Of a stretch of DNA of 64,000 nucleotides, positions 1-63,468 are shown one piece after another; within the stretch, counting starts at the first letter, position 1, and every line of letters starts with the position of its first letter. Origin of the DNA: an uncultured bacterium (lineage in GTDB: Bacteria; Cyanobacteriota; Vampirovibrionia; Gastranaerophilales; Gastranaerophilaceae). The stretch is from NCBI GenBank assembly GCA_902788345.1, contig CADAJP010000001.1, forward strand, positions 153,795 through 217,794, written 5' to 3'. Both the position numbers and the translations under genes were made by a program. Under the pieces are notes generated by a model, which worked only from the letters and a program-made list of their open reading frames with translations, was not told where the DNA came from and made no database searches.

Positions 1-750
1 TTCCATAAACTCTACTCCTTTGCCTTTTATTGTATTCGCTACAATAACCACCGGAGAAGAAGAATTTTTAGCTTCTTCAATTGCAGAGTATATTTGTACT
101 ATGTCATGTCCGTCAATTTCTATTGTTTCCCATCCAAATGCTTTAAATTTTTCTGCAACATTACCAAGAGCCATTACATTTTCTGTATTACCGTCAATTT
201 GCAGTTTATTTCTGTCAACAATGGCGATTAAGTTATTTAATTTTCTGTGAGGAGCCTGCATAGCGGCTTCCCAAACATTCCCTTCCTGTAATTCACCATC
301 ACCAAGCATTACAAATACATGAGCCGGACTTTTATCAAGTTTTAATGCCATAGCAAGTCCGCATGCAAAAGATAATCCTTGACCGAGTGAGCCTGTAGCC
401 ATTTCAACACCCGGAGTCATGTGTGTAGGATGTCCCTGCAGTCTGGAACCAAGTTTTCTGAAACTTAACAATTCTTCTTCAGGAAAAAATCCTTTTTGAG
501 CAAGAACAGAATAGTATAGCGGTGATATATGCCCTTTTGACAGTATGAATCTGTCTCTGTTTTTATATTCTTCTTCTGTCATATCGGCAGAAAAGTTCAT
601 ACATTTATGAAACAAAACGGTTAAAATATCTGTAGCAGATAAAGAACCGCCAATGTGACCTGATTGTGCTGTATAAACCATATCTAAAATATTTTTTCTG
701 CTCTTGTGAGCAAGTTCTTTAAGTTCATTAATTTCTTTATCTGTTAACAT
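1..750 (-). CDS. tkt: Transketolase, N-terminal thiamine-diphosphate-binding part. The 3' end of the gene lies beyond the window start. Probably the split-type N-terminal subunit.
   Basis: Minus-strand translation from ATG 750..748 reads MLTDKEINELKELAHKSRKNILDMVYTAQSGHIGGSLS...MLGDGELQEGNVWEA...VANTIKGKGVEFME. It carries the GHxGxxLS and GDGxxxEG TPP motifs. Absent from the ORF track because it is open at the window edge. Confidence 0.85.
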   Translation of the reverse strand, partial: MLTDKEINELKELAHKSRKNILDMVYTAQSGHIGGSLSATDILTVLFHKCMNFSADMTEEEYKNRDRFILSKGHISPLYYSVLAQKGFFPEEELLSFRKLGSRLQGHPTHMTPGVEMATGSLGQGLSFACGLAMALKLDKSPAHVFVMLGDGELQEGNVWEAAMQAPHRKLNNLIAIVDRNKLQIDGNTENVMALGNVAEKFKAFGWETIEIDGHDIVQIYSAIEEAKNSSSPVVIVANTIKGKGVEFME

Positions 751-2723: not shown

Positions 2724-2763
2724 GTTTTACATATTTAAAACGATTTAGAAAAATAATTGTTCA
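2724..2763 (-). promoter_or_regulatory. Weaker copy (F) of the recurrent CAATT-N15-TTTAxATAT promoter-like motif
   Basis: Minus strand reads tgaaCAATT-atttttctaaatcgt-TTTAAATATGTAAAAC. The 15-nt spacer is exact. Confidence 0.35.
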
Positions 2764-22618: not shown

Positions 22619-23023
22619 TTAACTGTGTATCTGAAACGGACACTTGGTACAATGAGCTTTTGGATGCAGTACAAGATTGTCTTCCAAATCATATAATTTT
22701 GCTATGCGTGTTACTAACGGTGCTCCGCATTTTGGGCATTTTAATCCCCCTGCACCGTTAAGTATCAATTCTTTAAGGCTTTCTATTATTTCTGCAGAAA
22801 CTATATCACTTGAAATATCTTTTTCGTATGTTTTAATTTCGTCAGGCTCACACTTCAGAACTTTAGCTAATGCCTGTCTGACAGTTGTTGATAAAAATAA
22901 AACCTTACCTTCTTCTATTTCATCAATGTCATTTAATGGTATATTAGCACTTATTGCAAGTGCTTTTCTCGTAAGATCAAGTTCTTCTCTTTTTGTTGAT
23001 ATAAATTTTGCAAGTGTTTTCAT
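22619..23023 (-). CDS. XRE-type HTH protein with a C-terminal zinc ribbon
   Basis: The N-terminal LTRKALAISANIPLNDIDEIEEGK is an HTH. The C-terminus has CPKCGAP...CTKCP. Confidence 0.6.
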   Translation of the reverse strand: MKTLAKFISTKREELDLTRKALAISANIPLNDIDEIEEGKVLFLSTTVRQALAKVLKCEPDEIKTYEKDISSDIVSAEIIESLKELILNGAGGLKCPKCGAPLVTRIAKLYDLEDNLVLHPKAHCTKCPFQIHS

Positions 23024-23081: not shown

Positions 23082-23143
23082 TATTAATCCTCAAAACTCA
23101 CTAATATCAATACTTTTGAATTTTATAAAAAATATTTTTTCTT

Positions 23144-23188
23144 AAAAAGGCAATTTTTTAAAATGTAAATACTTTATATATACACAGG
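23144..23188 (+). promoter_or_regulatory. Copy B of the recurrent promoter-like motif
   Basis: aaaaagGCAATT-ttttaaaatgtaaat-ACTTTATATATACACAGG. Confidence 0.55.
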
Positions 23189-23216
23189 GGATATTAAAAA
23201 CACGGGGAACGGAAAA

Positions 23217-24323
23217 ATGATTTCAAATTTATCAATTGCAAATGCACCATATTTAGGATTACCTGGAACAGGTGTCGTTGATTTAGCAGGAAGAACTCAT
23301 ATCTTCACTAATGATCAATTTGGTTCTACTTCAAACGGCGGTATGACATTATTTGGTCAGCAGGGTGCAACACATATTGGTACTGATTATACAGCACCGG
23401 CTGCTCAACCAAATCCATTCGCAGTTGTAAATCAAGCTCAAAGTATGTTAGCTGAAGTTTTCAACAAACTTACTTCAAGCAATATTGATTCAGCATTAGG
23501 TGCATTGACTACTCAAAAAAATCAATTGATCTCTAAATACAATAGCGGTAATGCTTCAAATGAACTTAAAACTGTTATTAAAGAACAAGTAGATCAACTT
23601 GAAAATTATGAAAGACAATTAAACTATTTGAAAGCTAACGGCGGAAACTTAGATCCTCAAACAGCTTATCAAAGATCTGAATACATCAAACACGGTGTTA
23701 CTAATTTAATCAATTTAAGCACAACAACAATCAAGGCTATGGAAGCTCAATCTACCCAAGCAACTCAACAAGCTTCTGAAACTCAACAAGGTCAAAAACC
23801 TGAAGAAGATTCATTAGAAGCAAAAGCTCAAAAAGTTAAAAATGACAATATTTACACAAGAGCAGGCGAAGATGACTTAAATCCTGATGAAGTTTCCGGT
23901 AAATATTATGACGAATTGATAAAAGATTTATATGATTCAATGAAGGGTATCGGAACTGACGACAAAAAACTTGAAGAATCAATGAACAAAATCAATAAAA
24001 ACAATGTAATTGAACTTATGTTCATGTGGAATCAAAAATATCCAAATGAATCTTTAATGGAAATGTTTATGGCAGACGCAGGTTCTCATCAGAAAAAAGA
24101 ATTTGGTGAAAAGGTTGCAACCGCATTAGAACAAGCAGCAGCTGATTTAGGTGTTGACTTATCAAATGATGAAGATATGAAAGCAATCAAAAAAGAAGTA
24201 CACAACAGCTGGTTCTGGATTAACAATGATGTAGCTGACAACTATAACAATATCGTTAAAAAGTTATTGGCAGCTGCAGGAGTTGAATATAACTACTCTC
24301 CATACTCAATGTTTTCAAAATAA
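23217..24323 (+). CDS. Hypothetical protein with one annexin-like repeat near the C-terminus
   Basis: DLYDSMKGIGTDDKKLEESMNKINKNNVIELMFMWNQKYPNESLMEMFMADAGSHQKKEF compares with the annexin consensus L..AMKG.GTDE..LI.IL..R......I...Y....G..L...I..E.SG. No signal peptide. Confidence 0.6.
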   Translation: MISNLSIANAPYLGLPGTGVVDLAGRTHIFTNDQFGSTSNGGMTLFGQQGATHIGTDYTAPAAQPNPFAVVNQAQSMLAEVFNKLTSSNIDSALGALTTQKNQLISKYNSGNASNELKTVIKEQVDQLENYERQLNYLKANGGNLDPQTAYQRSEYIKHGVTNLINLSTTTIKAMEAQSTQATQQASETQQGQKPEEDSLEAKAQKVKNDNIYTRAGEDDLNPDEVSGKYYDELIKDLYDSMKGIGTDDKKLEESMNKINKNNVIELMFMWNQKYPNESLMEMFMADAGSHQKKEFGEKVATALEQAAADLGVDLSNDEDMKAIKKEVHNSWFWINNDVADNYNNIVKKLLAAAGVEYNYSPYSMFSK

Positions 24324-24424
24324 TAAATCATAAAATATAAATACACGAATTACCAAAAAAAATATCCACCACATAAATATTCTCATAATATGAAATAAGG
24401 TTAGGTAGTTAGTGTAGAAAATTT

Positions 24425-24450
24425 ATCCCGCAATTTGCGGGATTTTTTTT
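24425..24450 (+). terminator. Terminator
   Basis: ATCCCGCAAttTGCGGGATtttttttt. Confidence 0.8.
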
Positions 24451-29230: not shown

Positions 29231-29779
29231 TTAGATAATTTTTGATAATGCATTTATATCATTATATTTTTGGTCAATAGCACCATCATTTCTGTCATGC
29301 TGTCTTATAATGTGGATTGCGCCGCCTACGACTGCCGCTAATCCGGCTGCAACTAACATGTATTTGCCTCGCTTTGCACTTGATGAGCTTGCAAATTTTT
29401 CAACTGCGTCAATTACTTTTGTTATAACTTTTTTACCTTTTTCGGTTTTACCGATTTTCTTTCCTGCTTTTGTAATCCATTCGCCTAATTTTGTTGTGAT
29501 TTTGCTTCCGATTTTTGTACTGTTAATTTTTTCAAGTGCTTTACCGCCATAAGTCGTTGCCAAATCAAGACCTTTTGTTACATATTTATCTGCAGCTTTA
29601 TACAATTTAACCATTTTTTTAGGGTTTGCTTTTGCGACTGTATTAACTGCATAAGCAGCACCCCCAGTTCCTGCAAGTGCAACGGCCGTCCCAAAATTGT
29701 TGGCAAATTTTTCCTGACTTTTAGCTTTGTTGTAATCGTAACGAGCACCTACATAACTTCCAAAATTTACACTAGACAT
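29231..29779 (-). CDS. Lys/Gly/Ala-rich hypothetical protein with one hydrophobic Gly/Ala segment
   Basis: 182 aa with no signal peptide. Contains KIGKTEKGKKVITKVIDAVEKF and LVAAGLAAVVGGAIHII. Promoter motif copy D lies upstream. Confidence 0.55.
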   Translation of the reverse strand: MSSVNFGSYVGARYDYNKAKSQEKFANNFGTAVALAGTGGAAYAVNTVAKANPKKMVKLYKAADKYVTKGLDLATTYGGKALEKINSTKIGSKITTKLGEWITKAGKKIGKTEKGKKVITKVIDAVEKFASSSSAKRGKYMLVAAGLAAVVGGAIHIIRQHDRNDGAIDQKYNDINALSKII

Positions 29780-29817
29780 AAAAACCTAACCTTTCTATAA
29801 AAAATACACTATCACTA

Positions 29818-29856
29818 CCTACATTATTAAAGTTATTTTTTTTTAATTTATTGCCA
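29818..29856 (-). promoter_or_regulatory. Copy D of the recurrent promoter-like motif
   Basis: Minus strand reads tgGCAATA-aattaaaaaaaaata-ACTTTAATAATGTAGG. Confidence 0.5.
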
Positions 29857-33640: not shown

Positions 33641-34288
33641 CTATACTATTTTGTTATTAATTGCTTTTAGCACTGCATTTAATCTGTCATCAACTTCCAA
33701 TTTTTGCAATATACTCGCAACATGAGCTTTTGTTGTATTGACACTTATGACAAGTTTTTTGGCTATTTCCATATTTGAGCATCCTTCTGTCATAAGCTTC
33801 AGTATCTGTGCTTCTCTTAATGTTAAATCATAATTTTTGTATTCACTGCTTAAGTCTTGTGCTTTTGAATTAGTGGTTGCTTGTAATACTATGTGTGCAA
33901 TACTCGGATCAAACCAAGCCGCACCTTCGGATACAGACTGCACAACCTGAACAAGTCTTTGCAGGTTTATTTCCTTTGAACAATATGCATTTGCACCGGC
34001 TTTTAAACTGCTCAAAACCTCTTTCTCATCATTGTGGGATGTTAAGATGATAATTTTAACATCTTTGTTTATGTTGCGAATTACATTTGTTGTTTCTATA
34101 CCATTCATTTTGGGCAAGCCTAGATCCATAATTATAATATTAATGGTGTTATTTTTGAATATTTCAACAGCTTCTTCACCTGTTGATGCTTCATAAATTG
34201 TGCCGACATATTCAACATCTTCAAACGTTGTTTTAAGCCCAAATCTTGTAAGCTCGTGGTCTTCTACAATTAAAAGGTTGTTTTTCAT
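33641..34288 (-). CDS. NarL/FixJ-family response regulator (receiver plus LuxR HTH)
   Basis: LLIVEDHELTR...IIIMDLGLPKMNG is the phospho-acceptor Asp context. The C-terminus is LTLREAQILKLMTEGCSNMEIAKKLVISVNTTKAHV. Confidence 0.9.
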   Translation of the reverse strand: MKNNLLIVEDHELTRFGLKTTFEDVEYVGTIYEASTGEEAVEIFKNNTINIIIMDLGLPKMNGIETTNVIRNINKDVKIIILTSHNDEKEVLSSLKAGANAYCSKEINLQRLVQVVQSVSEGAAWFDPSIAHIVLQATTNSKAQDLSSEYKNYDLTLREAQILKLMTEGCSNMEIAKKLVISVNTTKAHVASILQKLEVDDRLNAVLKAINNKIV

Positions 34289-35844
34289 ATCTGCAGTTCC
34301 TCTTTTGCCGGTGTGAAATCAGGATTTAGTTTCAAACTTTGTTCAAAATTTTCTTTTGCAGAAGCAAACAAACCTTTTTCTTTTAAAACTAATCCAAAAT
34401 AGTAATAATATCTGTAATCGCTTTCGTTGATGTGTTTTGCAATACCAAGATATGAAAGAGCCTGTTCAAACATATTTTTCTTAATCATAACTCTGGCTAA
34501 ATCAACCCAGCCATCTTCAAAATCAGGATTTATAGAAATTGATTTTTTAAGGTATTCTGTTTCTCTGTCAGGTTCAAGCAAAGCCATATTATAATATGCA
34601 AGATATGATTTTGATGAATCTTTCAGAATTTTTGAATATATTTCTTTTGCTTTGTTAATTTCTTTTAATTTCAGATATGTTTGTGCAAGTTTTAAAGAAG
34701 CCTCATAATCGTGTTCACGAGATTGAGCTTTTTTATAAAATTTTATGGCTTTTTGGTAATCTTTGTTCCTGTATGCAACATCACCTATAACAGTTAACGC
34801 TGCATAATTTGAGCCGTCAATATTAAGAGCTTTTTGAGCATAGTCCTGTGCTTTTTCAAATTCTTTAGTTTCAAAATATATTTGTGAAGAAAGTGCAAAA
34901 ACATCTTTATTTATATTCTTTTTTGTTGATACTGATGTTTGTAATACCCCAAGAGCCTTGTTATATTCATCTTTATCAAAATAATAATGAGCAAGATAAT
35001 ATTTTCTTATATAATCATTTTTGGCTGTTTTATACATAATATAATCAACAGATGAATGAATTTCATTGTTAAATATAACTGTTTTTAAATCAGCTTTAGA
35101 AAGCTCTTTGTGAATACTTAATGCTTCTTTTTGGTTTCCGTTTTGGGCATATATTTCAGCTTTAAGTTTTTTATAATTAAGATTTTTCGGATTTTTGGCC
35201 GCAGCTTTATTTATATACTCCAGAGCTGCTTTTGAATTTCCGTTTTTCATTGAACCAAGAGCGAGTATATAATTTGCGTAATCAGATTCCATCAGTAATG
35301 TTGATTGCTTTGATAATTCGCTCGTAGCCTCTTTACTTTGGTCGTTATACATAATATTTGAGTATAATTCCGCAAGATATAACTGGTCTTTTTGAGTTAA
35401 ATCTGAAGACGGGAAATAAAACTTTTTAACATCATCCTCAACGCTTGAACACAATGTAGAATCTTCAATTTTTGACATTGCAAGTTCTGCAAGATTAAAA
35501 AATCCAATAGATGCCATTTCCTGAACTAATCTCATATAAACATAATCATTCGGTGCGACACTGTCAATCAAAACTTTAAAATCAGCATATGAAGCTCTTA
35601 CGTTGCTTCTTGTAAATTTACTCATTGCAATTGCATACTGATTTTTTATTGCATTTTTGGTGAGTTTAGCTCGTTTTAGTTCAAATATCGGCATTGATAA
35701 TTCTTTATTATAATTTTTTGTTTTTTCATCAAGAGGGTTTACAGGAGCAATGTCATTAAGGTCAAACGCATATGCACCGCCGACTGAAGTCAGGGTAAGT
35801 AATAATATTATAAATTGTTTTATGTATATTTTATTCATTTCCAT
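34285..35844 (-). CDS. Secreted TPR-repeat protein
   Basis: Signal peptide IILLLTLTSVGGAYA, followed by many 34-aa TPR units (A..Y...A......Y..A...Y..AL..NP). Confidence 0.8.
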   Translation of the reverse strand: MEMNKIYIKQFIILLLTLTSVGGAYAFDLNDIAPVNPLDEKTKNYNKELSMPIFELKRAKLTKNAIKNQYAIAMSKFTRSNVRASYADFKVLIDSVAPNDYVYMRLVQEMASIGFFNLAELAMSKIEDSTLCSSVEDDVKKFYFPSSDLTQKDQLYLAELYSNIMYNDQSKEATSELSKQSTLLMESDYANYILALGSMKNGNSKAALEYINKAAAKNPKNLNYKKLKAEIYAQNGNQKEALSIHKELSKADLKTVIFNNEIHSSVDYIMYKTAKNDYIRKYYLAHYYFDKDEYNKALGVLQTSVSTKKNINKDVFALSSQIYFETKEFEKAQDYAQKALNIDGSNYAALTVIGDVAYRNKDYQKAIKFYKKAQSREHDYEASLKLAQTYLKLKEINKAKEIYSKILKDSSKSYLAYYNMALLEPDRETEYLKKSISINPDFEDGWVDLARVMIKKNMFEQALSYLGIAKHINESDYRYYYYFGLVLKEKGLFASAKENFEQSLKLNPDFTPAKEELQI

Positions 35845-37543
35845 TACTCATATTAAGATAATATTTGTTAAATAAGTCCAGCAGGTATGTTTCGTTTTCA
35901 TTTTGAGTCTGGTTGTCTGAAATATTTTTTATATCATATAAATTGTGTTTTGACAATACTTCATTGTCTTGAGCTGAAATATTGCCGCCTGTTTCAGATA
36001 AAAATACATTTATAATCTTATCAAGGGAAATCTTCATGAATGTATCGGCAAGCATAGGATCAAAGTGTTTACCTGAACCTTCAATAATAATATTTAGAAC
36101 ATTTTTAATAGGCATTTTATCACGATAGTGTCTTTTTGAGGTTATTGCATCAAATACATCCGCAACGGCAAGTATTCTGCCTCCAAGAGTGATTTCTTCA
36201 CCTTTAAGGTGCCTGTAATATCCTGTGCCGTCATATTTTTCGTGATGCGATGATGCCATTTCCGTAATAATTCTAAAATCAGGCGACATATATAACTTGT
36301 TCAGAATATTATGGGTAATACGCACATGCTCCTGAATATGCTTGTATTCTTCGTCTGTGAGCTTGCCTTCTTTTTGTAGTACGGAATCTCTTATGCCGAT
36401 TTTACCGATATCGTGAAGTGTTGCAGCTTTCTCAAGCAAACTCTTATCTTTTTTATCAAGATTTAATTCGTCTGCAAGCAAAGATGAATACATACGAACC
36501 CTTGTAGAGTGACCTGCGGTAATTTTATCTCTTGCGTCAACTGAAGTTGCCAATGTATCAATAAAACTTTCAAACAAAAGTTTTTGCTCTCGGTACATTT
36601 GCAGCTGTTGATCAAATAATTGTGCATTTTCAAGTGCTATACTCGCACTTCCGCCTATTGCTATAAGTAAATCTTCGTCATTCTTTGTAAAAATTCCGTC
36701 TATTTTATTTAAAACCTGAAATGCACCAATAATTTCGTGGCTGTTATTCATAATAGGCATACATAAAATTGTTTTTGTTTTATAACCTGTTTTTTTATCA
36801 ACTTCAGGATTAAAACGCGAATCCGAATACGCATCAGTAATGTTTACTGTTTCGCCTGACTGAACAACATATCCTGCCAAACCTTTATCTGCAGGAAATC
36901 TTATTTCTTTATTTTCAACACCAAGAGCAACCTTTGACCATAATTCATTTGATTCTTTATCCCATAAAAATACGGTACATCTGTCGGCCTGCATTGCATT
37001 TTTTGTTTCTTGGGCAATGACTTTTAACAGTTCATCAATATCTGTCAATGCAGTAATAGAACGGCTGATTTTTACAAGCGAAACAAGCGGATCGGTTTGT
37101 GTCGGCAATGAATAATCCATACCGTTTTGCAACTGTTTAATTCTCGTATTGATAAGTTCTGACAGAGAAAATTCGTCATTCTGTGATGCGGTTTTTAGTG
37201 CATTATTGTAATGAATAAGCGCAATATCTTTATTATTTTCCGCAAAATTTATATTCCCTTTTACAAATTCATTTATCAATGTAGCTGTTTTATCTTCTTC
37301 ATTTTTGGCTAAAAAACTTGCCTCATCAAGAAATTCGGAGCCGTCACTTGTTCCGATTGAATATTGAATCATTGCATTAAGGCTGAGAACTATTGATAAA
37401 ATTTTATTATTGTTTGTATTTTGTGCAACATTATAAATGTCTGAAATGTAATTTTGCGCAGCAATATAGTCTTTTGAGCTGATACATTTTATACAGTCAT
37501 TTATAAGTTCATGCGTATTATCTTCAGATTTAGTTATTGTCAT
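35831..37543 (-). CDS. GAF plus HD-GYP domain protein (putative c-di-GMP phosphodiesterase) with an N-terminal helical repeat region
   Basis: The GAF core lies around residues 160-310. The HD motif is ATLHDIGKIG, and HHEKYDGTGYY matches HHExxDGxGY. Confidence 0.85.
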   Translation of the reverse strand: MTITKSEDNTHELINDCIKCISSKDYIAAQNYISDIYNVAQNTNNNKILSIVLSLNAMIQYSIGTSDGSEFLDEASFLAKNEEDKTATLINEFVKGNINFAENNKDIALIHYNNALKTASQNDEFSLSELINTRIKQLQNGMDYSLPTQTDPLVSLVKISRSITALTDIDELLKVIAQETKNAMQADRCTVFLWDKESNELWSKVALGVENKEIRFPADKGLAGYVVQSGETVNITDAYSDSRFNPEVDKKTGYKTKTILCMPIMNNSHEIIGAFQVLNKIDGIFTKNDEDLLIAIGGSASIALENAQLFDQQLQMYREQKLLFESFIDTLATSVDARDKITAGHSTRVRMYSSLLADELNLDKKDKSLLEKAATLHDIGKIGIRDSVLQKEGKLTDEEYKHIQEHVRITHNILNKLYMSPDFRIITEMASSHHEKYDGTGYYRHLKGEEITLGGRILAVADVFDAITSKRHYRDKMPIKNVLNIIIEGSGKHFDPMLADTFMKISLDKIINVFLSETGGNISAQDNEVLSKHNLYDIKNISDNQTQNENETYLLDLFNKYYLNMSNGNE

Positions 37544-46513: not shown

Positions 46514-46670
46514 AATTATCCCCTATAAAAACTTATTATTATTGTACTTTAAAATATTTTAAACAGATACATATGATGAAATTTTGTAACAAAATTTTTA
46601 ATATTATTAAAGTTTTATTCAAAGCATGTCGATTAAAAAGTTGTTGAAAGTTTAAGAGGAGTTGTAATTT

Positions 46671-46841
46671 ATGCAGGACACATTATTTGATTCAGAGGTA
46701 GAAGAAGCAAGATTATCAGGATTAAAAAGTTTAAAATGTGAAATGAAATCCGTTGAAGCATTAATAGAAAGATTCTTAGCACAGCTTTTAGAATGTTCGA
46801 GTTCATTATCTGAACGCGATTTTAATGTATGCGGATTATAG
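46671..46841 (+). CDS. Small ORF (56 aa), hypothetical; too short for the ORF track
   Basis: AGAGGAG Shine-Dalgarno 8 nt upstream of the ATG. Sequence is MQDTLFDSEVEEARLSGLKSLKCEMKSVEALIERFLAQLLECSSSLSERDFNVCGL. Followed by a hairpin terminator. Confidence 0.4.
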   Translation: MQDTLFDSEVEEARLSGLKSLKCEMKSVEALIERFLAQLLECSSSLSERDFNVCGL

Positions 46842-46866: not shown

Positions 46867-46893
46867 AAGGAACCTTTAATTTAAAGGTTCCTT
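46867..46893. terminator. Bidirectional terminator
   Basis: AAGGAACCTTTAAtTTAAAGGTTCCTT is a perfect palindrome. Confidence 0.75.
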
Positions 46894-46920: not shown

Positions 46921-48042
46921 TTATGCCATCATTCCGAATCCGTTACCTTGATATTGGAATTTGTATCCCATTGGGTATCTTTGGAAGATGTTTGAACCTG
47001 CATCAAGTCCGAATGGATTAGAGTATGTTGTGTATGCACTTTGTGCAACCGGATTTGATGTGAATGATTGAACTGATGTATCAGATGGTTCTAATTTTTC
47101 AGGAAGTCCTGAATTATTTTGTGCTTGCTGAACAGTTGTTTGATCTGTTGCTTGTGCTTCATCAGTACTTTCAGCTTGTTCAGAACCTTCTTGAGTTTGT
47201 TGTGCTGTTTCAGCTTCAGGAGCTAAACTTCTGATTCTGTCTCTTAAAGCTTGTGTGTTAGTTTCGTCTTGAGCAACTTCTGTCGGCTGTTCTTCAGGAT
47301 TTGCTTCTTCTGTTTCAGCTGCGTGAGTTTCTGCATATGAAGCTCCCATTATTTTGTTTGCAATCCATTCACCTGCAACATAACCTGCGATACCGCCAAT
47401 TGCTCCGCCACAAGCTGCACCAACTGCGCCAAGTGCTGCACCTGCTGCTATTTTAATGCAGGATTTACCGGTTTCTTTTAAACCTGCCCAGAATCCTTCA
47501 TTTTTGAATGCCGGATAGATATTTTCATATGTTTCATATCCTAAAGTTACGAGAGATGCTATTACAGGCATTTTGCAAAGTGGTTTTAAAACTGCTTTTG
47601 TTCCGCCTAATGCTTTGCCAAATTTACCGAGTTTACCTAAGTATTTACCTGTAGTTGCCGCAGCAGCACCTGCTTTAAAAGTTGAAGAAATTGATTTACC
47701 AACTGCACTTGCAATACCTTTAGAGCCTGCTGCAATTTTTTGCAATGATGATAATTTTTTAGCTGCACTTGCTGCATTTACAGCTGCTGAATATTGTGCT
47801 TTTGCTTTTGCATATAAGCCCGGTCTTGATGCAGTTGCAATAATATCAGATTTCAAAGTCTGAAAACCTATTTTTGCTTTTGGTACAAAGTTTTGGAATA
47901 TAGTACGTCCGCCAACTGATTTTCTTGCGTTTTGAATAACACTATATCCTTCGCCAAAAGCATATCTTGGTACAACAGATGCATATTTTAATCCTGTTTT
48001 ACCATATTGTAATCCCAGTTTTGCTAATGATGCGATACTCAT
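46921..48042 (-). CDS. Gly/Ala/Lys-rich protein with a glycine-zipper segment and an acidic/Q-rich tail (paralogue of 52356..53279)
   Basis: GAALGAVGAACGGAIGGIAGYVAGEWIANKIMGASYAE. No signal peptide. Promoter motif copy A lies upstream. Confidence 0.6.
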   Translation of the reverse strand: MSIASLAKLGLQYGKTGLKYASVVPRYAFGEGYSVIQNARKSVGGRTIFQNFVPKAKIGFQTLKSDIIATASRPGLYAKAKAQYSAAVNAASAAKKLSSLQKIAAGSKGIASAVGKSISSTFKAGAAAATTGKYLGKLGKFGKALGGTKAVLKPLCKMPVIASLVTLGYETYENIYPAFKNEGFWAGLKETGKSCIKIAAGAALGAVGAACGGAIGGIAGYVAGEWIANKIMGASYAETHAAETEEANPEEQPTEVAQDETNTQALRDRIRSLAPEAETAQQTQEGSEQAESTDEAQATDQTTVQQAQNNSGLPEKLEPSDTSVQSFTSNPVAQSAYTTYSNPFGLDAGSNIFQRYPMGYKFQYQGNGFGMMA

Positions 48043-48067
48043 TTTTAAATCCCCTTTATATATATCC

Positions 48068-48111
48068 CCTGTGTATATATAAAGTATTTAATTTATAGAG
48101 AATTGCTTTTT
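48068..48111 (-). promoter_or_regulatory. Copy A of the recurrent promoter-like motif
   Basis: Minus strand reads aaaaaGCAATT-ctctataaattaaat-ACTTTATATATACACAGG. Confidence 0.55.
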
Positions 48112-48146
48112 TGTTAATTTTATATTAAGTTTTGTAAAGTTATAAT

Positions 48147-52355: not shown

Positions 52356-53279
52356 TTATGCGGTCATATTATACTGAAAATTCGGTTTCATAATATCATC
52401 TGAATAAGGTTGGTTTTGAACTGCGAACGGATTATACGCACCCGGTGTATTTACTGCCGGCATTGCAGGGGTTTGAGGTGTTGGAACATTTCCTTGCATT
52501 GTCGGACTGTTTGTCATTTGCATTTGTGGGTTAGCAGCAGGAGTCTGTGCTATTTGTTCTGCTTGCGGATTTTGCATCCAGAACGGATTACCGTTTGGTT
52601 GATGTTCTTGTGCTTGTTCCGGAGTTTGCATTTGCTGTTGTTGTTCAATAAATGTTCTTAATTGTTCTTCTTTTTCAGCTTTTTCTTCCGAATAAGATTT
52701 ACCTACAATTTTACTTGCAAACCATTCACCTGCAATCCACCCTGCCATTGTACCGACAAAAGGAATTGGTATTACGGCTGAACCTATTGCGGCTCCTAAA
52801 CCGCCGCCTGTAAGTTTAGCAGTTGATTTAATTACTTCTGCTCCGCCCTGGAAGATGCCTTTTTCTTTTGTTGCTGTAAATATATTTGGAAGTTCAAACA
52901 ACATCATTGACAATGCACCAATAAACGGCATCTTTTTGCCAACGCCTTTGAAAAATCCTTTTGTGCCTTCTAAAAACACATTCCTACCGGTTAATCTTGC
53001 CGCTGATGTTTTTGTTAAAATATTTGATTTTATGCAAGGTATGAAATTTTTGAAGTTCTTTATAAAATTTTCGAAAAAATTTCCGGCACCGGCTTTTTCT
53101 AATGCGTGCCAGCCGGCCTGTGCTTTTGTAAATAATGAGCCGTTTGTTTTTCTTAAAGTTTCACCAATCGATTCACTAGCACTTCCAAAAATCAGTTCCG
53201 GAACTACCTCTCCTACACGTTTTGTGTAGCCCCAGGCTTTACCTAAATTGCTCATTGCCATTGATACGCCGCTAACCAT
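52356..53279 (-). CDS. Gly-zipper/Q-rich protein (paralogue of 46921..48042)
   Basis: GGGLGAAIGSAVIPIPFVGTMAGWIAGEWFASKIVGKSYSEE aligns with the paralogue. The Q/P-rich tail carries NPFWMQN and NPFAVQNQ. Confidence 0.6.
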   Translation of the reverse strand: MVSGVSMAMSNLGKAWGYTKRVGEVVPELIFGSASESIGETLRKTNGSLFTKAQAGWHALEKAGAGNFFENFIKNFKNFIPCIKSNILTKTSAARLTGRNVFLEGTKGFFKGVGKKMPFIGALSMMLFELPNIFTATKEKGIFQGGAEVIKSTAKLTGGGLGAAIGSAVIPIPFVGTMAGWIAGEWFASKIVGKSYSEEKAEKEEQLRTFIEQQQQMQTPEQAQEHQPNGNPFWMQNPQAEQIAQTPAANPQMQMTNSPTMQGNVPTPQTPAMPAVNTPGAYNPFAVQNQPYSDDIMKPNFQYNMTA

Positions 53280-53338
53280 AATAACCTTTTCCTTTTATTG
53301 TTTGCATTTTGATATTACACACAAATGCATAAACCTAA

Positions 53339-53383
53339 CCTACATATATATAAAGTTTTTCTTTTTTGAATAATTGCTTTTTT
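53339..53383 (-). promoter_or_regulatory. Copy C of the recurrent promoter-like motif
   Basis: Minus strand reads aaaaaaGCAATT-attcaaaaaagaaaa-ACTTTATATATATGTAGG. Confidence 0.55.
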
Positions 53384-53415
53384 GTAACAAAAAGTTAATA
53401 TTTCTCTAAAAAAAC

Positions 53416-63134: not shown

Positions 63135-63311
63135 TTAAGCAATAAAGTTAGTTCCAAATCTGTTTGCTCCTTGGAAAAATGACTGTTTCATCATTTCAGT
63201 TAAAGTCTTTCTGACTTTTCTTTTGTCATTCAAATTAACTTCGCTTATTGCTATAGATGTATCTTTATATGTATTTGTAACCGCATCAGAAAATAACAAC
63301 ATAGTTGCCAT
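63135..63311 (-). CDS. Small ORF (58 aa), hypothetical; too short for the ORF track
   Basis: ATG 63311..63309 is preceded by AGAGAGGA. Sequence is MATMLLFSDAVTNTYKDTSIAISEVNLNDKRKVRKTLTEMMKQSFFQGANRFGTNFIA. Promoter motif copy E lies upstream. Confidence 0.4.
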   Translation of the reverse strand: MATMLLFSDAVTNTYKDTSIAISEVNLNDKRKVRKTLTEMMKQSFFQGANRFGTNFIA

Positions 63312-63370: not shown

Positions 63371-63415
63371 CTTACATATATATAAAAACTCCACTTAAAA
63401 AAATATTGACTTTTT
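63371..63415 (-). promoter_or_regulatory. Copy E of the recurrent promoter-like motif
   Basis: Minus strand reads aaaaagTCAATA-tttttttaagtggag-TTTTTATATATATGTAAG. Confidence 0.5.
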
Positions 63416-63468
63416 ATATTCAATTTATATAAATTTTGTTACATTACTTTACATTAACTCTAAAAAAC

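Follow-up and report, generated by a model that had tools for sequence, protein, structure and literature searches.

A probable composite promoter of about 75 bp marks an apparently undescribed regulon in the Gastranaerophilales

The DNA analysed was a stretch of 64,000 nucleotides (the window; G+C content 33%) of contig CADAJP010000001.1 (positions 153,795 to 217,794, forward strand; assembly GCA_902788345.1) from an uncultured bacterium of the order Gastranaerophilales. These organisms are gut Melainabacteria, non-photosynthetic relatives of the cyanobacteria. An earlier note on the window had described a promoter-like motif, CAATW-N15-WYTTTAWATA, in six intergenic copies aimed at six unannotatable genes, and had taken it as the mark of a dispersed regulon of lineage-specific proteins. 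The copies and the genes behind them are listed below. Positions are those of the window, motif positions are counted from the C of CAAT (position 0), and bit scores come from a weight matrix built from 119 independent copies taken from other genomes. The DNA read comprised the 64-kb window and related loci of 8 kb (designated by L and a number), and all related sequences found were metagenome-derived.

48068..48113, minus strand: core promoter, copy 1, an exact pattern match (50.1 bits), consisting of AAAAAAGCAATT (A-tract and -35-like box, C of CAAT at 48105), a 17-nt spacer, TACTTT (48081-48086), a TA run and CACAGG (48068-48073); the start is predicted within 48068-48074.
48112..48138, minus strand: phased half-sites upstream of copy 1, read from the sequence as a candidate response-regulator (HLR1-like) site: TTTACA (48133-48138), TTAATA (48123-48128) and TTAACA (48112-48117).
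48043..48067, minus strand: leader of copy 1, GGGGATATATATAAAGGGGATTTAAAA, with GGGGA at its 5' end and again at the ribosome-binding site; kept in L130, L132, L134 and L219.
46921..48042, minus strand: regulon gene 1, a lineage-specific helical protein of 373 aa whose hydrophobic segment is rich in glycine and whose tail, rich in Q/E/P, is disordered.
46867..46893: bidirectional intrinsic-terminator-like hairpin, a scan match, which would end the transcript of 46921..48042.
23143..23188, plus strand: core promoter, copy 2 (57.6 bits), with the C of CAAT at 23151, TACTTT at 23170-23175 and CACAGG at 23183-23188.
23217..24323, plus strand: regulon gene 2, 368 aa, in which a disordered N-terminal part and a coiled coil are combined with a helical domain at the C-terminus that bears KGIGTDD-type repeats.
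53339..53384, minus strand: core promoter, copy 3 (45.5 bits); CAAT has its C at 53376, TGTAGG occupies 53339-53344, and the half-sites GTTACA (53383-53388) and TTAACT (53393-53398) lie upstream.
52356..53279, minus strand: regulon gene 3, 307 aa, a paralogue of 46921..48042 (33% identity) whose leader carries GGTTAGG.
63371..63416, minus strand: core promoter, copy 4 (39.5 bits), with the C of CAAT at 63408.
63135..63311, minus strand: regulon gene 4, 58 aa, ending GANRFGTNFIA; it belongs to a small-protein family (a cluster of eight members) that has the motif in other species.
29818..29856, minus strand: weaker copy 5, in which GGCAAT-N17-CTTTA is kept and the TA run is 2 nt shorter (CTTTAATAATGTAGG), followed by TGTAGG.
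29231..29779, minus strand: gene behind copy 5, 182 aa, no known domain, with AGGTTAGG at the ribosome-binding site.
2724..2763, minus strand: sixth copy of the earlier note, with CAAT 2 nt nearer the TTTA block and lacking G/T before CAAT.

The pattern matched the window exactly at four places (48068-48111(-), 23144-23188(+), 53339-53383(-) and 63371-63415(-)), against 0.04 ± 0.20 matches in 100 dinucleotide-preserving shuffles. All four copies were intergenic, aimed at the adjacent open reading frame (ORF) and followed directly by a YRYARG block. The weight matrix gave them 39-58 bits; the rest of the window scored 8 bits or less, and the top score in 20 shuffled windows was 3.6 bits. A chance origin of these four copies is excluded. 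With one mismatch permitted there were six matches in the window (1.6 expected), the two extras not being the weak copies of the earlier note. Copy 5 had two mismatches to the pattern and scored below 8 bits with the rigid matrix. It was accepted as a weaker member because the same variant class occurs at unselected sites in other genomes, and it probably functions as a variant. The sixth copy is probably a chance resemblance and not a member. The statement that six copies share one motif with a spacer of exactly 15 nt was thus upheld for the four exact copies, with the fifth as a weaker variant and the sixth doubtful for its different spacing. Elsewhere the spacing proved to be fixed also at unselected sites, as described below.

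The motif was absent from the other approximately 55 genes of the window, which extends what had been seen for a few housekeeping genes; their visible promoters are ordinary extended -10 promoters (TGnTATAAT), for example TGGTATAAT, TAGTATAAT and TGATATAAT. The description of the downstream genes as unannotatable also held, no Pfam hit being obtained for any of the six ORFs.

The pattern CAATW-N15-WYTTTATATATAYRYARG was then scanned against one genome per species (185,579 species), and at least 120 loci matched. Most were labelled Gastranaerophilales, Melainabacteria or Cyanobacteria and came from assemblies of animal guts; the remainder were unlabelled gut assemblies, or carried another label and yet had the same gene families. 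The shared motif and orphan gene families, together with near-identical promoters, agree with a gut member of the Gastranaerophilales as the very probable source of the window. The taxonomic range obtained in this way is a lower bound. Strict copies lay outside ORFs of at least 120 codons in 123 of 125 cases, though such ORFs cover 79% of the DNA, and the first ATG was found 20-30 nt 3' of the motif in 53 of 103. Approximately 25 further matrix hits in the same 864 kb, not selected by the pattern, were nearly all placed just before a ribosome-binding site and ATG. A weight-matrix scan of related genomes had been suggested in the earlier note as a check; the motif was found almost only between genes and correctly oriented. 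At a density of 4-5 sites per 64 kb, a genome of an assumed size of about 2 Mb would hold roughly a hundred.

Several bases that the search pattern leaves free were conserved nonetheless: AAAAAGG before CAAT and TTT behind it, A(T/A)ATAC before TTTATATATA and AGATAA after TAAG. Two weaker TTAACA-like bumps were visible further upstream in the alignment of the scan copies. When half-motif pairs were counted at unselected sites, a spacing of N=15 occurred 15 times against 1-7 times for other spacings; a second test at unselected sites gave 9 against 0-2. The TA run behind CTTTA can be 2-4 nt shorter. A fixed distance from CAAT to CTTTA together with a TA run of variable length is as expected of a -35/-10 pair with a discriminator of flexible length.

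Conservation was also assessed at loci chosen by protein similarity. Orthologues of 46921..48042 picked by protein identity alone (49%, 42% and 35%) have retained both promoter and leader (CACAGGGGATAT...AAGGGGA) with hardly a base changed, while the proteins themselves diverged (copy 1 in L130, L132 and L134). Orthologues of 23217..24323 at 69%, 65% and 31% identity likewise keep the motif (copy 2 in L218, L220 and L217), the TA run being shorter in the 31% one. Copy 4 is a variant in which GTCAAT and GTTTTT replace GGCAAT and TACTTT; the same variant precedes the orthologues in L041, L079 and L108, and the L041 promoter is near-identical to copy 4. The commonest downstream gene in the genome scan (family F0) encodes a protein of 80-95 aa with the segment ...DRRMRFNNSKDPIYYVFD.... 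The F0 protein alignment was searched against metagenome contigs, relatives were found encoded in 238 stretches, and 80 of these were examined. The motif stood upstream of the F0-family gene in all 80, with scores of at least 37 bits in 79. With orthologues as distant as 31-49% identity retaining the motif, and 80 of 80 loci retaining it when found by protein homology, the proposal of a dispersed regulon of lineage-specific genes was supported.

A logo of 67 distinct F0 sites was near-invariant over about 70 bp except for five spacer bases. Its upstream part reads TGTTAAnA (-35..-28) and TGTTAACA (-25..-18), and its core AAAAA(A/G)GCAATTTTTT (-7..+8), five variable bases and TTATATACTTTATATATATGTAAGA-N-ATA (+14..+42). 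The full element extends much further than the stretch first described, which stands as part of it. It begins with two direct repeats resembling GTTAACA at an interval of 10 bp and continues with AAAAAGGCAATTTTT, a gap of five variable bases and ATACTTTATATATAYRTAAG, about 75 bp in all. Some 70 of the 75 positions are nearly fixed across the order, which is unusual for a bacterial promoter, and so high a conservation suggests that several proteins read the same DNA.

Copies that are dispersed and nearly identical could also belong to a mobile repeat (a miniature inverted-repeat transposable element or a phage-derived cassette) that carries a promoter by chance, and nine matches did lie in contigs classed as viral. 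This explanation is very improbable. The motif stays at the same orthologous genes across 31-96% protein identity, the similarity does not reach beyond about -40 on one side and the leader on the other, inspection by eye showed neither inverted nor direct repeats at the flanks, and the spacer differs between copies. The viral matches are single-copy and mostly in short contigs of 4-10 kb, only three contigs being of 18-117 kb, and in six of the nine the motif precedes one and the same host small-protein family. A phage origin was rejected on these grounds, the nine single-copy hits being host-fragment-like.

The nine contigs concerned (L121-L129, from IMG/VR) each hold one full motif copy. The family behind six of these copies (MLFTTE...) is a long form of the family that includes the window gene 63135..63311. 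The contigs are either misfiled host fragments, or the gene family resides on a mobile region.

The element is with good confidence a composite bacterial promoter specific to the order Gastranaerophilales. From its 5' end it would comprise GTTAACA/TTTACA-like half-sites, from one to three in number and phased at 10 bp (about -33, -23 and sometimes -12); an A-tract that merges into a -35-like box, AAAAA(G/A)GCAAT, with a T-tract and then about five free bases behind it; a putative -10 region, (A)TACTTTAT, exactly 17 nt from CAAT; and an alternating TA run that may serve as an easily melted discriminator. Transcription would most likely begin inside the YRYARG block, at about +31 to +37. RNA polymerase would start either 20-60 nt 5' of the start codon of a small lineage-specific protein or at the 5' end of a small RNA of 100-180 nt closed by an intrinsic terminator. 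In the core, AAGGCA (-4..+1) and TACTTT (+19..+24) are 17 nt apart. The first keeps the G and CA of TTGACA, and the second the T, A and final T of TATAAT. In this register transcription would begin at about +31 to +33, a start at A+36 or G+37 being no less likely. Two short contigs that begin inside the motif (L219 and L220) were considered as proxies for transcript 5' ends and were discarded as ordinary metagenome fragments.

The sequence just past the block is also conserved within gene families, and TTAACA (-23..-18) is separated by exactly 17 nt from the downstream CAATTT, a hexamer with A as its second and T as its sixth base. The promoter could accordingly be placed further upstream (TTAACA-17 nt-CAATTT), the block from TACTTTATATATA to YRTAAG then being a transcribed 5' leader that acts as an RNA-protein binding or processing site. 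That arrangement appears improbable. The TTAACA sequence is repeated directly 10 nt upstream, a better fit for a regulator site than for a -35 box, and the invariant AAAAAGG would sit unexplained in the spacer. No common RNA fold was found (the four window copies gave z = -4.1, -0.5, +1.0 and -0.6), the YR positions (TG, CA, TA) vary with retention of the purine-pyrimidine alternation and without covariation, and the TA run is of variable length, by 2-4 nt.

The end of the motif, ATATAYRTAAGAGA, brings to mind promoters of single-subunit phage-type RNA polymerases. Plant mitochondrial promoters have CRTAAGAGA, and T7-like promoters have TATA and then a purine-rich start. The resemblance is confined to the last 15 nt or so, whereas the element spans about 75 bp with two boxes and a fixed spacer, as is typical of sigma-dependent promoters; a regular-expression search for two T7-type signature motifs found none in the ORFs of about 1 Mb of related DNA. 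A polymerase of this kind is hardly credible as the reader of the motif.

The composite-promoter interpretation leaves the choice of sigma factor to be made. The earlier note had found the motif to resemble neither the sigma-70 nor the sigma-28 consensus, and this agreed with the comparisons made here. A housekeeping sigma-70 promoter was rejected, the core lacking the TG of TGnTATAAT and matching at most 3 of 6 bases per box (AAGGCA, TACTTT). A generic sigma-70 consensus scan of the window gave 50 matches against 38 ± 6 expected, which is no enrichment; it did not pick out the core and met copy 1 only in an incidental 9/12 match in its upstream part. The bases flipped out by sigma-70-type factors are A-11 and T-7, and a pure (TA)n run cannot supply both because, being 4 nt apart, they fall in the same repeat phase.

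Other known classes were set aside one after another. The sigma-28/FliA boxes (TAAA-N15-GCCGATAA) are missing from the motif. The only flagellin gene found (L093) has no motif and carries instead a FliA-like TAAA-N15-GTGTTAAT-like sequence. For sigma-54 (GG at -24 and GC at -12; TGGCAC-N5-TTGC), GGCAAT is followed by the invariant T-tract with no GC 10 nt downstream. Promoters of extracytoplasmic function (ECF, group 4) sigma factors are similar in geometry and style alone (GCAAT and T-tract, 16 nt to CTTTA), and the CGT is lacking; phmmer and Pfam checks of faint candidates revealed no ECF sigma factor in about 1-1.26 Mb of related DNA, which does not make up a complete genome. Upstream (UP) elements have the proximal subsite AAAAAARNR, and the motif is similar in having AAAAA(A/G)G immediately 5' of the -35-like box; it differs in that the A-tract is fused to an invariant GCAAT with an invariant T-tract behind, and in its far higher conservation.

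Four types of sigma factor were found among the ORFs of about 1 Mb of related DNA: primary, a diverged group-2-like type, a SigB/F/G-type (SigF-like in what follows) and FliA. The primary sigma factor keeps every E. coli sigma-70 DNA-contact residue checked. The diverged group-2-like factor is conserved (L046:338-1237(-), L076:1-846(-) and L059:7447-7998(+)), is below all NCBIfam cut-offs for named sigma families and has changes at the equivalents of T440F, R441K, H455Y, R584K and R586C. In sigma-70 these residues contact the -12 base, the extended -10 element and the -35 box. On the altered contact residues, the group-2-like factor would be the favoured candidate reader of the motif.

The gene for the SigF-like sigma factor precedes a prepilin peptidase gene in L093:1033-3882 (-) and L078:2319-4134 (-), the former locus adding the flagellin gene. 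This operon arrangement points to pilus genes. In two loci a distance of 1-3 kb separates the SigF-like gene from the flagship small-protein gene; a connection based on this was dropped, the synteny not being conserved. The conserved neighbours of the small-protein gene are an RND efflux operon and one further gene, the N-terminus of which resembles that of a GH38 alpha-mannosidase. Autoregulation by the SigF-like factor was also dismissed, its gene in L093 having an ordinary extended -10 promoter and no motif. In Synechocystis, SigF (group 3) promoters consist of an AG-rich stretch, TAGGC ([C/T]AGGC) at -32 and GG(G)TAAG (GGGT[A/G][A/G][A/G]) at -12 (PMC2532724). The motif is similar in that AGGC, about -32 relative to the predicted start, comes directly behind a stretch rich in purines and TAAG stands at the motif's end, and the lineage does have a SigF-like sigma factor (L078, L093). 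It differs in that AGGC and TAAG are 32 nt apart instead of about 15 nt, so that one sigma factor cannot contact both in the usual geometry, and in that GGG/GGGT is missing. A SigF promoter of the cyanobacterial kind was therefore not accepted.

The reading that competes most directly with a dedicated sigma factor is an ordinary primary-sigma promoter that is conserved because of bound regulators, namely an RpaB-like activator and perhaps a second protein on AAAAAGGCAATTTTT. The likeness of AAGGCA-17 nt-TACTTT to the sigma-70 boxes (T-12, A-11 and T-7 of TATAAT being kept), the placing of the phased upstream repeats at a class-I-like activator position and the failure to find an ECF sigma factor in 1.26 Mb of related DNA speak for it. 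Housekeeping promoters in the window are nevertheless of the TGnTATAAT type, with the motif lacking the TG at that place; a near-invariant C+21, TTT and TA run across the order would be atypical for a primary sigma factor; the A-11 equivalent is lost in about 12% of copies; and the generic consensus scan misses the core. A primary-sigma promoter is thus considered unlikely, though a contender to be reckoned with.

Strict alternative-sigma regulons that include small RNAs are represented by E. coli sigma-E (RybB, MicA, MicL), and the sigma-B regulon of B. subtilis includes many small proteins of unknown function. The present set resembles these in its highly conserved two-box promoter with fixed spacer, dispersed before unrelated genes, and in its mixture of small proteins of unknown function with probable small RNAs, the seed regions of which are complementary to leaders of other members. 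Consensus sequences include GGAAC-N16-TCAAA for sigma-E and TGCAAC-N17-CGTC for sigma-M of B. subtilis. The motif is unlike any known sigma consensus, the likeness to sigma-E and sigma-M being one of style only (GCAAT and T-tract, spacer of 16-17 nt, a single conserved C).

Half-sites of the form T[TG][TA]A[AC]A upstream of 122 copies peaked at -33 and -23. A distance of 10 nt between half-sites occurred 16 times, against 1-6 times for other distances, and at least one half-site was present in 79 of 122 copies (about 65%) compared with 30 of 122 shuffled controls (about 25%). Exact KTTACAWW half-sites numbered 18 at -33 and 11 at -24/-23. The pair is centred about 56-62 nt 5' of the predicted start. 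Such a layout would be that of sites for OmpR/PhoB-type response regulators. The cyanobacterial regulator of photosynthesis and redox responses, RpaB, is of interest here: a response regulator in L088 (5804-6613, plus strand) passes the NCBIfam RpaB equivalog threshold (353 bits; cut-off 330), which is an observation to be noted in a non-photosynthetic lineage. The RpaB site, HLR1, consists of two 8-nt direct repeats, (G/T)TTACA(T/A)(T/A), with 2 nt between them; it serves activation from a centre at -66 to -45 and repression where it overlaps the start (PMC6525291). The likeness of the motif to HLR1 is partial and lies in the direct repeats, the 10-bp period and a (G/T)TTACA-like core; the predicted centre of its repeats falls inside the activating range. 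The RpaB orthologue would be the best candidate activator on the upstream repeats. The organisms being non-photosynthetic, the regulon cannot be a photosystem regulon.

Not every motif copy is followed by an ORF. An intrinsic terminator (a G+C-rich hairpin and T-run) ended 103-177 nt past the predicted start in 18 of 20 ORF-less copies, whereas 6.5% of random positions had a terminator within 60-200 nt. Being compact promoter-to-terminator units, these copies were read as small RNA genes, and they probably drive small RNAs. The small RNAs, not mentioned in the earlier note, apparently belong to the regulon in addition to the lineage-specific proteins. Three probable families were distinguished, mostly of 100-180 nt and all rich in C and A or U:

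Small RNA family A (L073, L058, L109, L077, L048, L084, L095, L059, L008, L014): ACACACUAACCU repeats.
Small RNA family B (L035, L067, L106, L023, L066): rich in CCUUCC and CUAACCU.
Small RNA family C (L009, L081, L101, L070): conserved UACUCUCUCUUAAUAUCCUCGUGUUUAUUUAAUG.

Rfam searches at the gathering score of the window and of 18 small-RNA loci returned tRNAs only, with nothing at the motif or the small RNAs, and none of the three families was found in the 64-kb window. Family C paired with the AAGAGAGAG leader and ribosome-binding site of F0 mRNAs at -20 kcal/mol, compared with -10 ± 2 for shuffles; families A and B showed no complementarity to the F0 leader. Family A paired above shuffles with GGUUAGG leaders, including those of the window genes 52356..53279 and 29231..29779. 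The computed complementarity suggests feed-forward control within the regulon.

The leaders of mRNAs behind the motif fell into three classes, each repeating the sequence of the predicted 5' end at the ribosome-binding site: AGAGAUA...AGAGAGAG; GGGGAUAU...(A/C)GGGGA (window genes 46921 and 23217); and GGUUAGG...AGGUUAGG (window genes 52356 and 29231). The window regions compared were 48043-48067(-), 23189-23216(+), 53280-53338(-) and 29780-29817(-). The duplicated GGGGA may be compared with leaders in which CsrA-type proteins occupy two sites. At 24392-24412 (+), AAGGTTAGGTAGTTAGTGTAG occurs in the 3' untranslated region of 23217..24323, just before a bidirectional terminator at about 24424-24447; this GGTTAGG-type sequence is complementary to the family A seed and could be a target or decoy site.

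The proteins of the regulon are largely without known domain. Families of this kind include F0, a family of 58-96 aa ending GANRFGxNFIA, to which 63135..63311 belongs, and others of 50, 67 and about 80 aa, and a CopG-type ribbon-helix-helix protein is present also. The larger proteins have no signal peptide and low-complexity N-termini; they carry SLT lytic transglycosylase or glucosaminidase domains that score above the Pfam cut-offs. A calpain-like match fell short of its cut-off, and a protease domain of matrixin-like type is found behind a weaker site. Two helical, glycine-rich proteins of the window are included. For 46921..48042, 13 homologues were found with no domain annotation and with 'hypothetical protein' as the only source name; its AlphaFold model (predicted local distance difference test, pLDDT, 50) was too poor for a structure search. 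In the AlphaFold model of 23217..24323, residues ~225-355 gave weak matches to the annexin/alpha-giardin fold (probability 0.8-0.9, E >= 0.15), and an annexin-like fold is tentatively suggested for the C-terminal domain. Bacterial annexin-like proteins are rare.

Taken as a whole, the motif is very probably a real and unusually invariant promoter that marks an apparently undescribed regulon. The promoter class and regulon appear to be new and order-wide; the type of mechanism is not new. The core would be recognised by a factor of the sigma-70 family that has its own specificity, and an OmpR/PhoB-type response regulator would bind the upstream repeats as activator. The earlier note had offered an alternative sigma factor or an activator box with a -10 element as alternatives; the evidence suggests that both may apply, sigma specificity being combined with an upstream activator site. 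A more comprehensive version is put forward tentatively, at somewhat less than an even chance. It envisages a global regulon of gut Melainabacteria in which the ~75-bp promoter module, with a lineage-specific sigma specificity and an RpaB switch, would govern small orphan proteins, numbering in the dozens, along with cell-wall hydrolases and no fewer than three new small RNA families, the latter acting back on leaders of mRNAs of the regulon. RpaB, the redox/light regulator of photosynthesis in cyanobacteria, would have been reassigned in these non-photosynthetic relatives.

Several points weigh against the composite-promoter interpretation. The transcription start and the -10 register are predictions from the sequence, and about 12% of copies, including copy 4 of the window, have (G/T)TT instead of TAC at +19..21, which weakens the TACTTT reading. 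The core would also pass for a weak promoter of the sigma-70 type (AAGGCA-17-TACTTT), in which case a primary sigma factor with an activator may suffice. The sigma factor and the regulator named for the motif are candidates. Unlike HLR1, the consensus half-site is GTTAACA, one base longer in its core; the repeats are far less conserved than the core promoter, about one-third of the copies having no clear half-site; and RpaB was seen in one locus only. Lastly, the orthologue of 23217..24323 in L216 (37% identity) has no motif, from which it follows that regulon membership varies between species.

Some neighbouring genes of the window deserve mention. Divergent from 23217..24323 is a gene for a 134-aa helix-turn-helix protein of the Cro/C1 (XRE) type (22619-23023, minus strand), and in L216, which has no motif at this place, a 134-aa gene likewise stands divergently at the corresponding position. 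Convergent with 46921..48042 is an ORF of 56 aa ending ...ERDFxVCGL (46671-46841, plus strand), which is kept in L130, L132 and L134. The sequence TTTTGTAACAAAATTTTTAA-N8-TTAAAGTTT upstream of it (46560-46670) is conserved in the same three loci and may be a second conserved promoter type, with a GTAACA half-site in common. A NarL-type response regulator (receiver and GerE domains; 33641-34288, minus strand) forms an apparent operon with two large upstream ORFs (34285-37543, minus strand) and has no evident link to the motif.

Gastranaerophilales are common in the guts of humans and livestock. Full-text searches of the literature gave no account of the promoters, sigma specificities or small RNAs of Melainabacteria/Gastranaerophilales, and nothing on their gene regulation. 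One easily recognised promoter allows the co-regulated set to be listed in any Gastranaerophilales genome, and a list made in this way would take in the small RNAs and the orphan small proteins overlooked by annotation pipelines. The promoter also provides concrete targets for metatranscriptomics and in vitro transcription. Should the upstream repeats prove to be RpaB sites, they would reveal a role for a core photosynthesis regulator in the non-photosynthetic sister lineage, and such a role, if true, would bear on the evolution of the cyanobacterial regulatory network.

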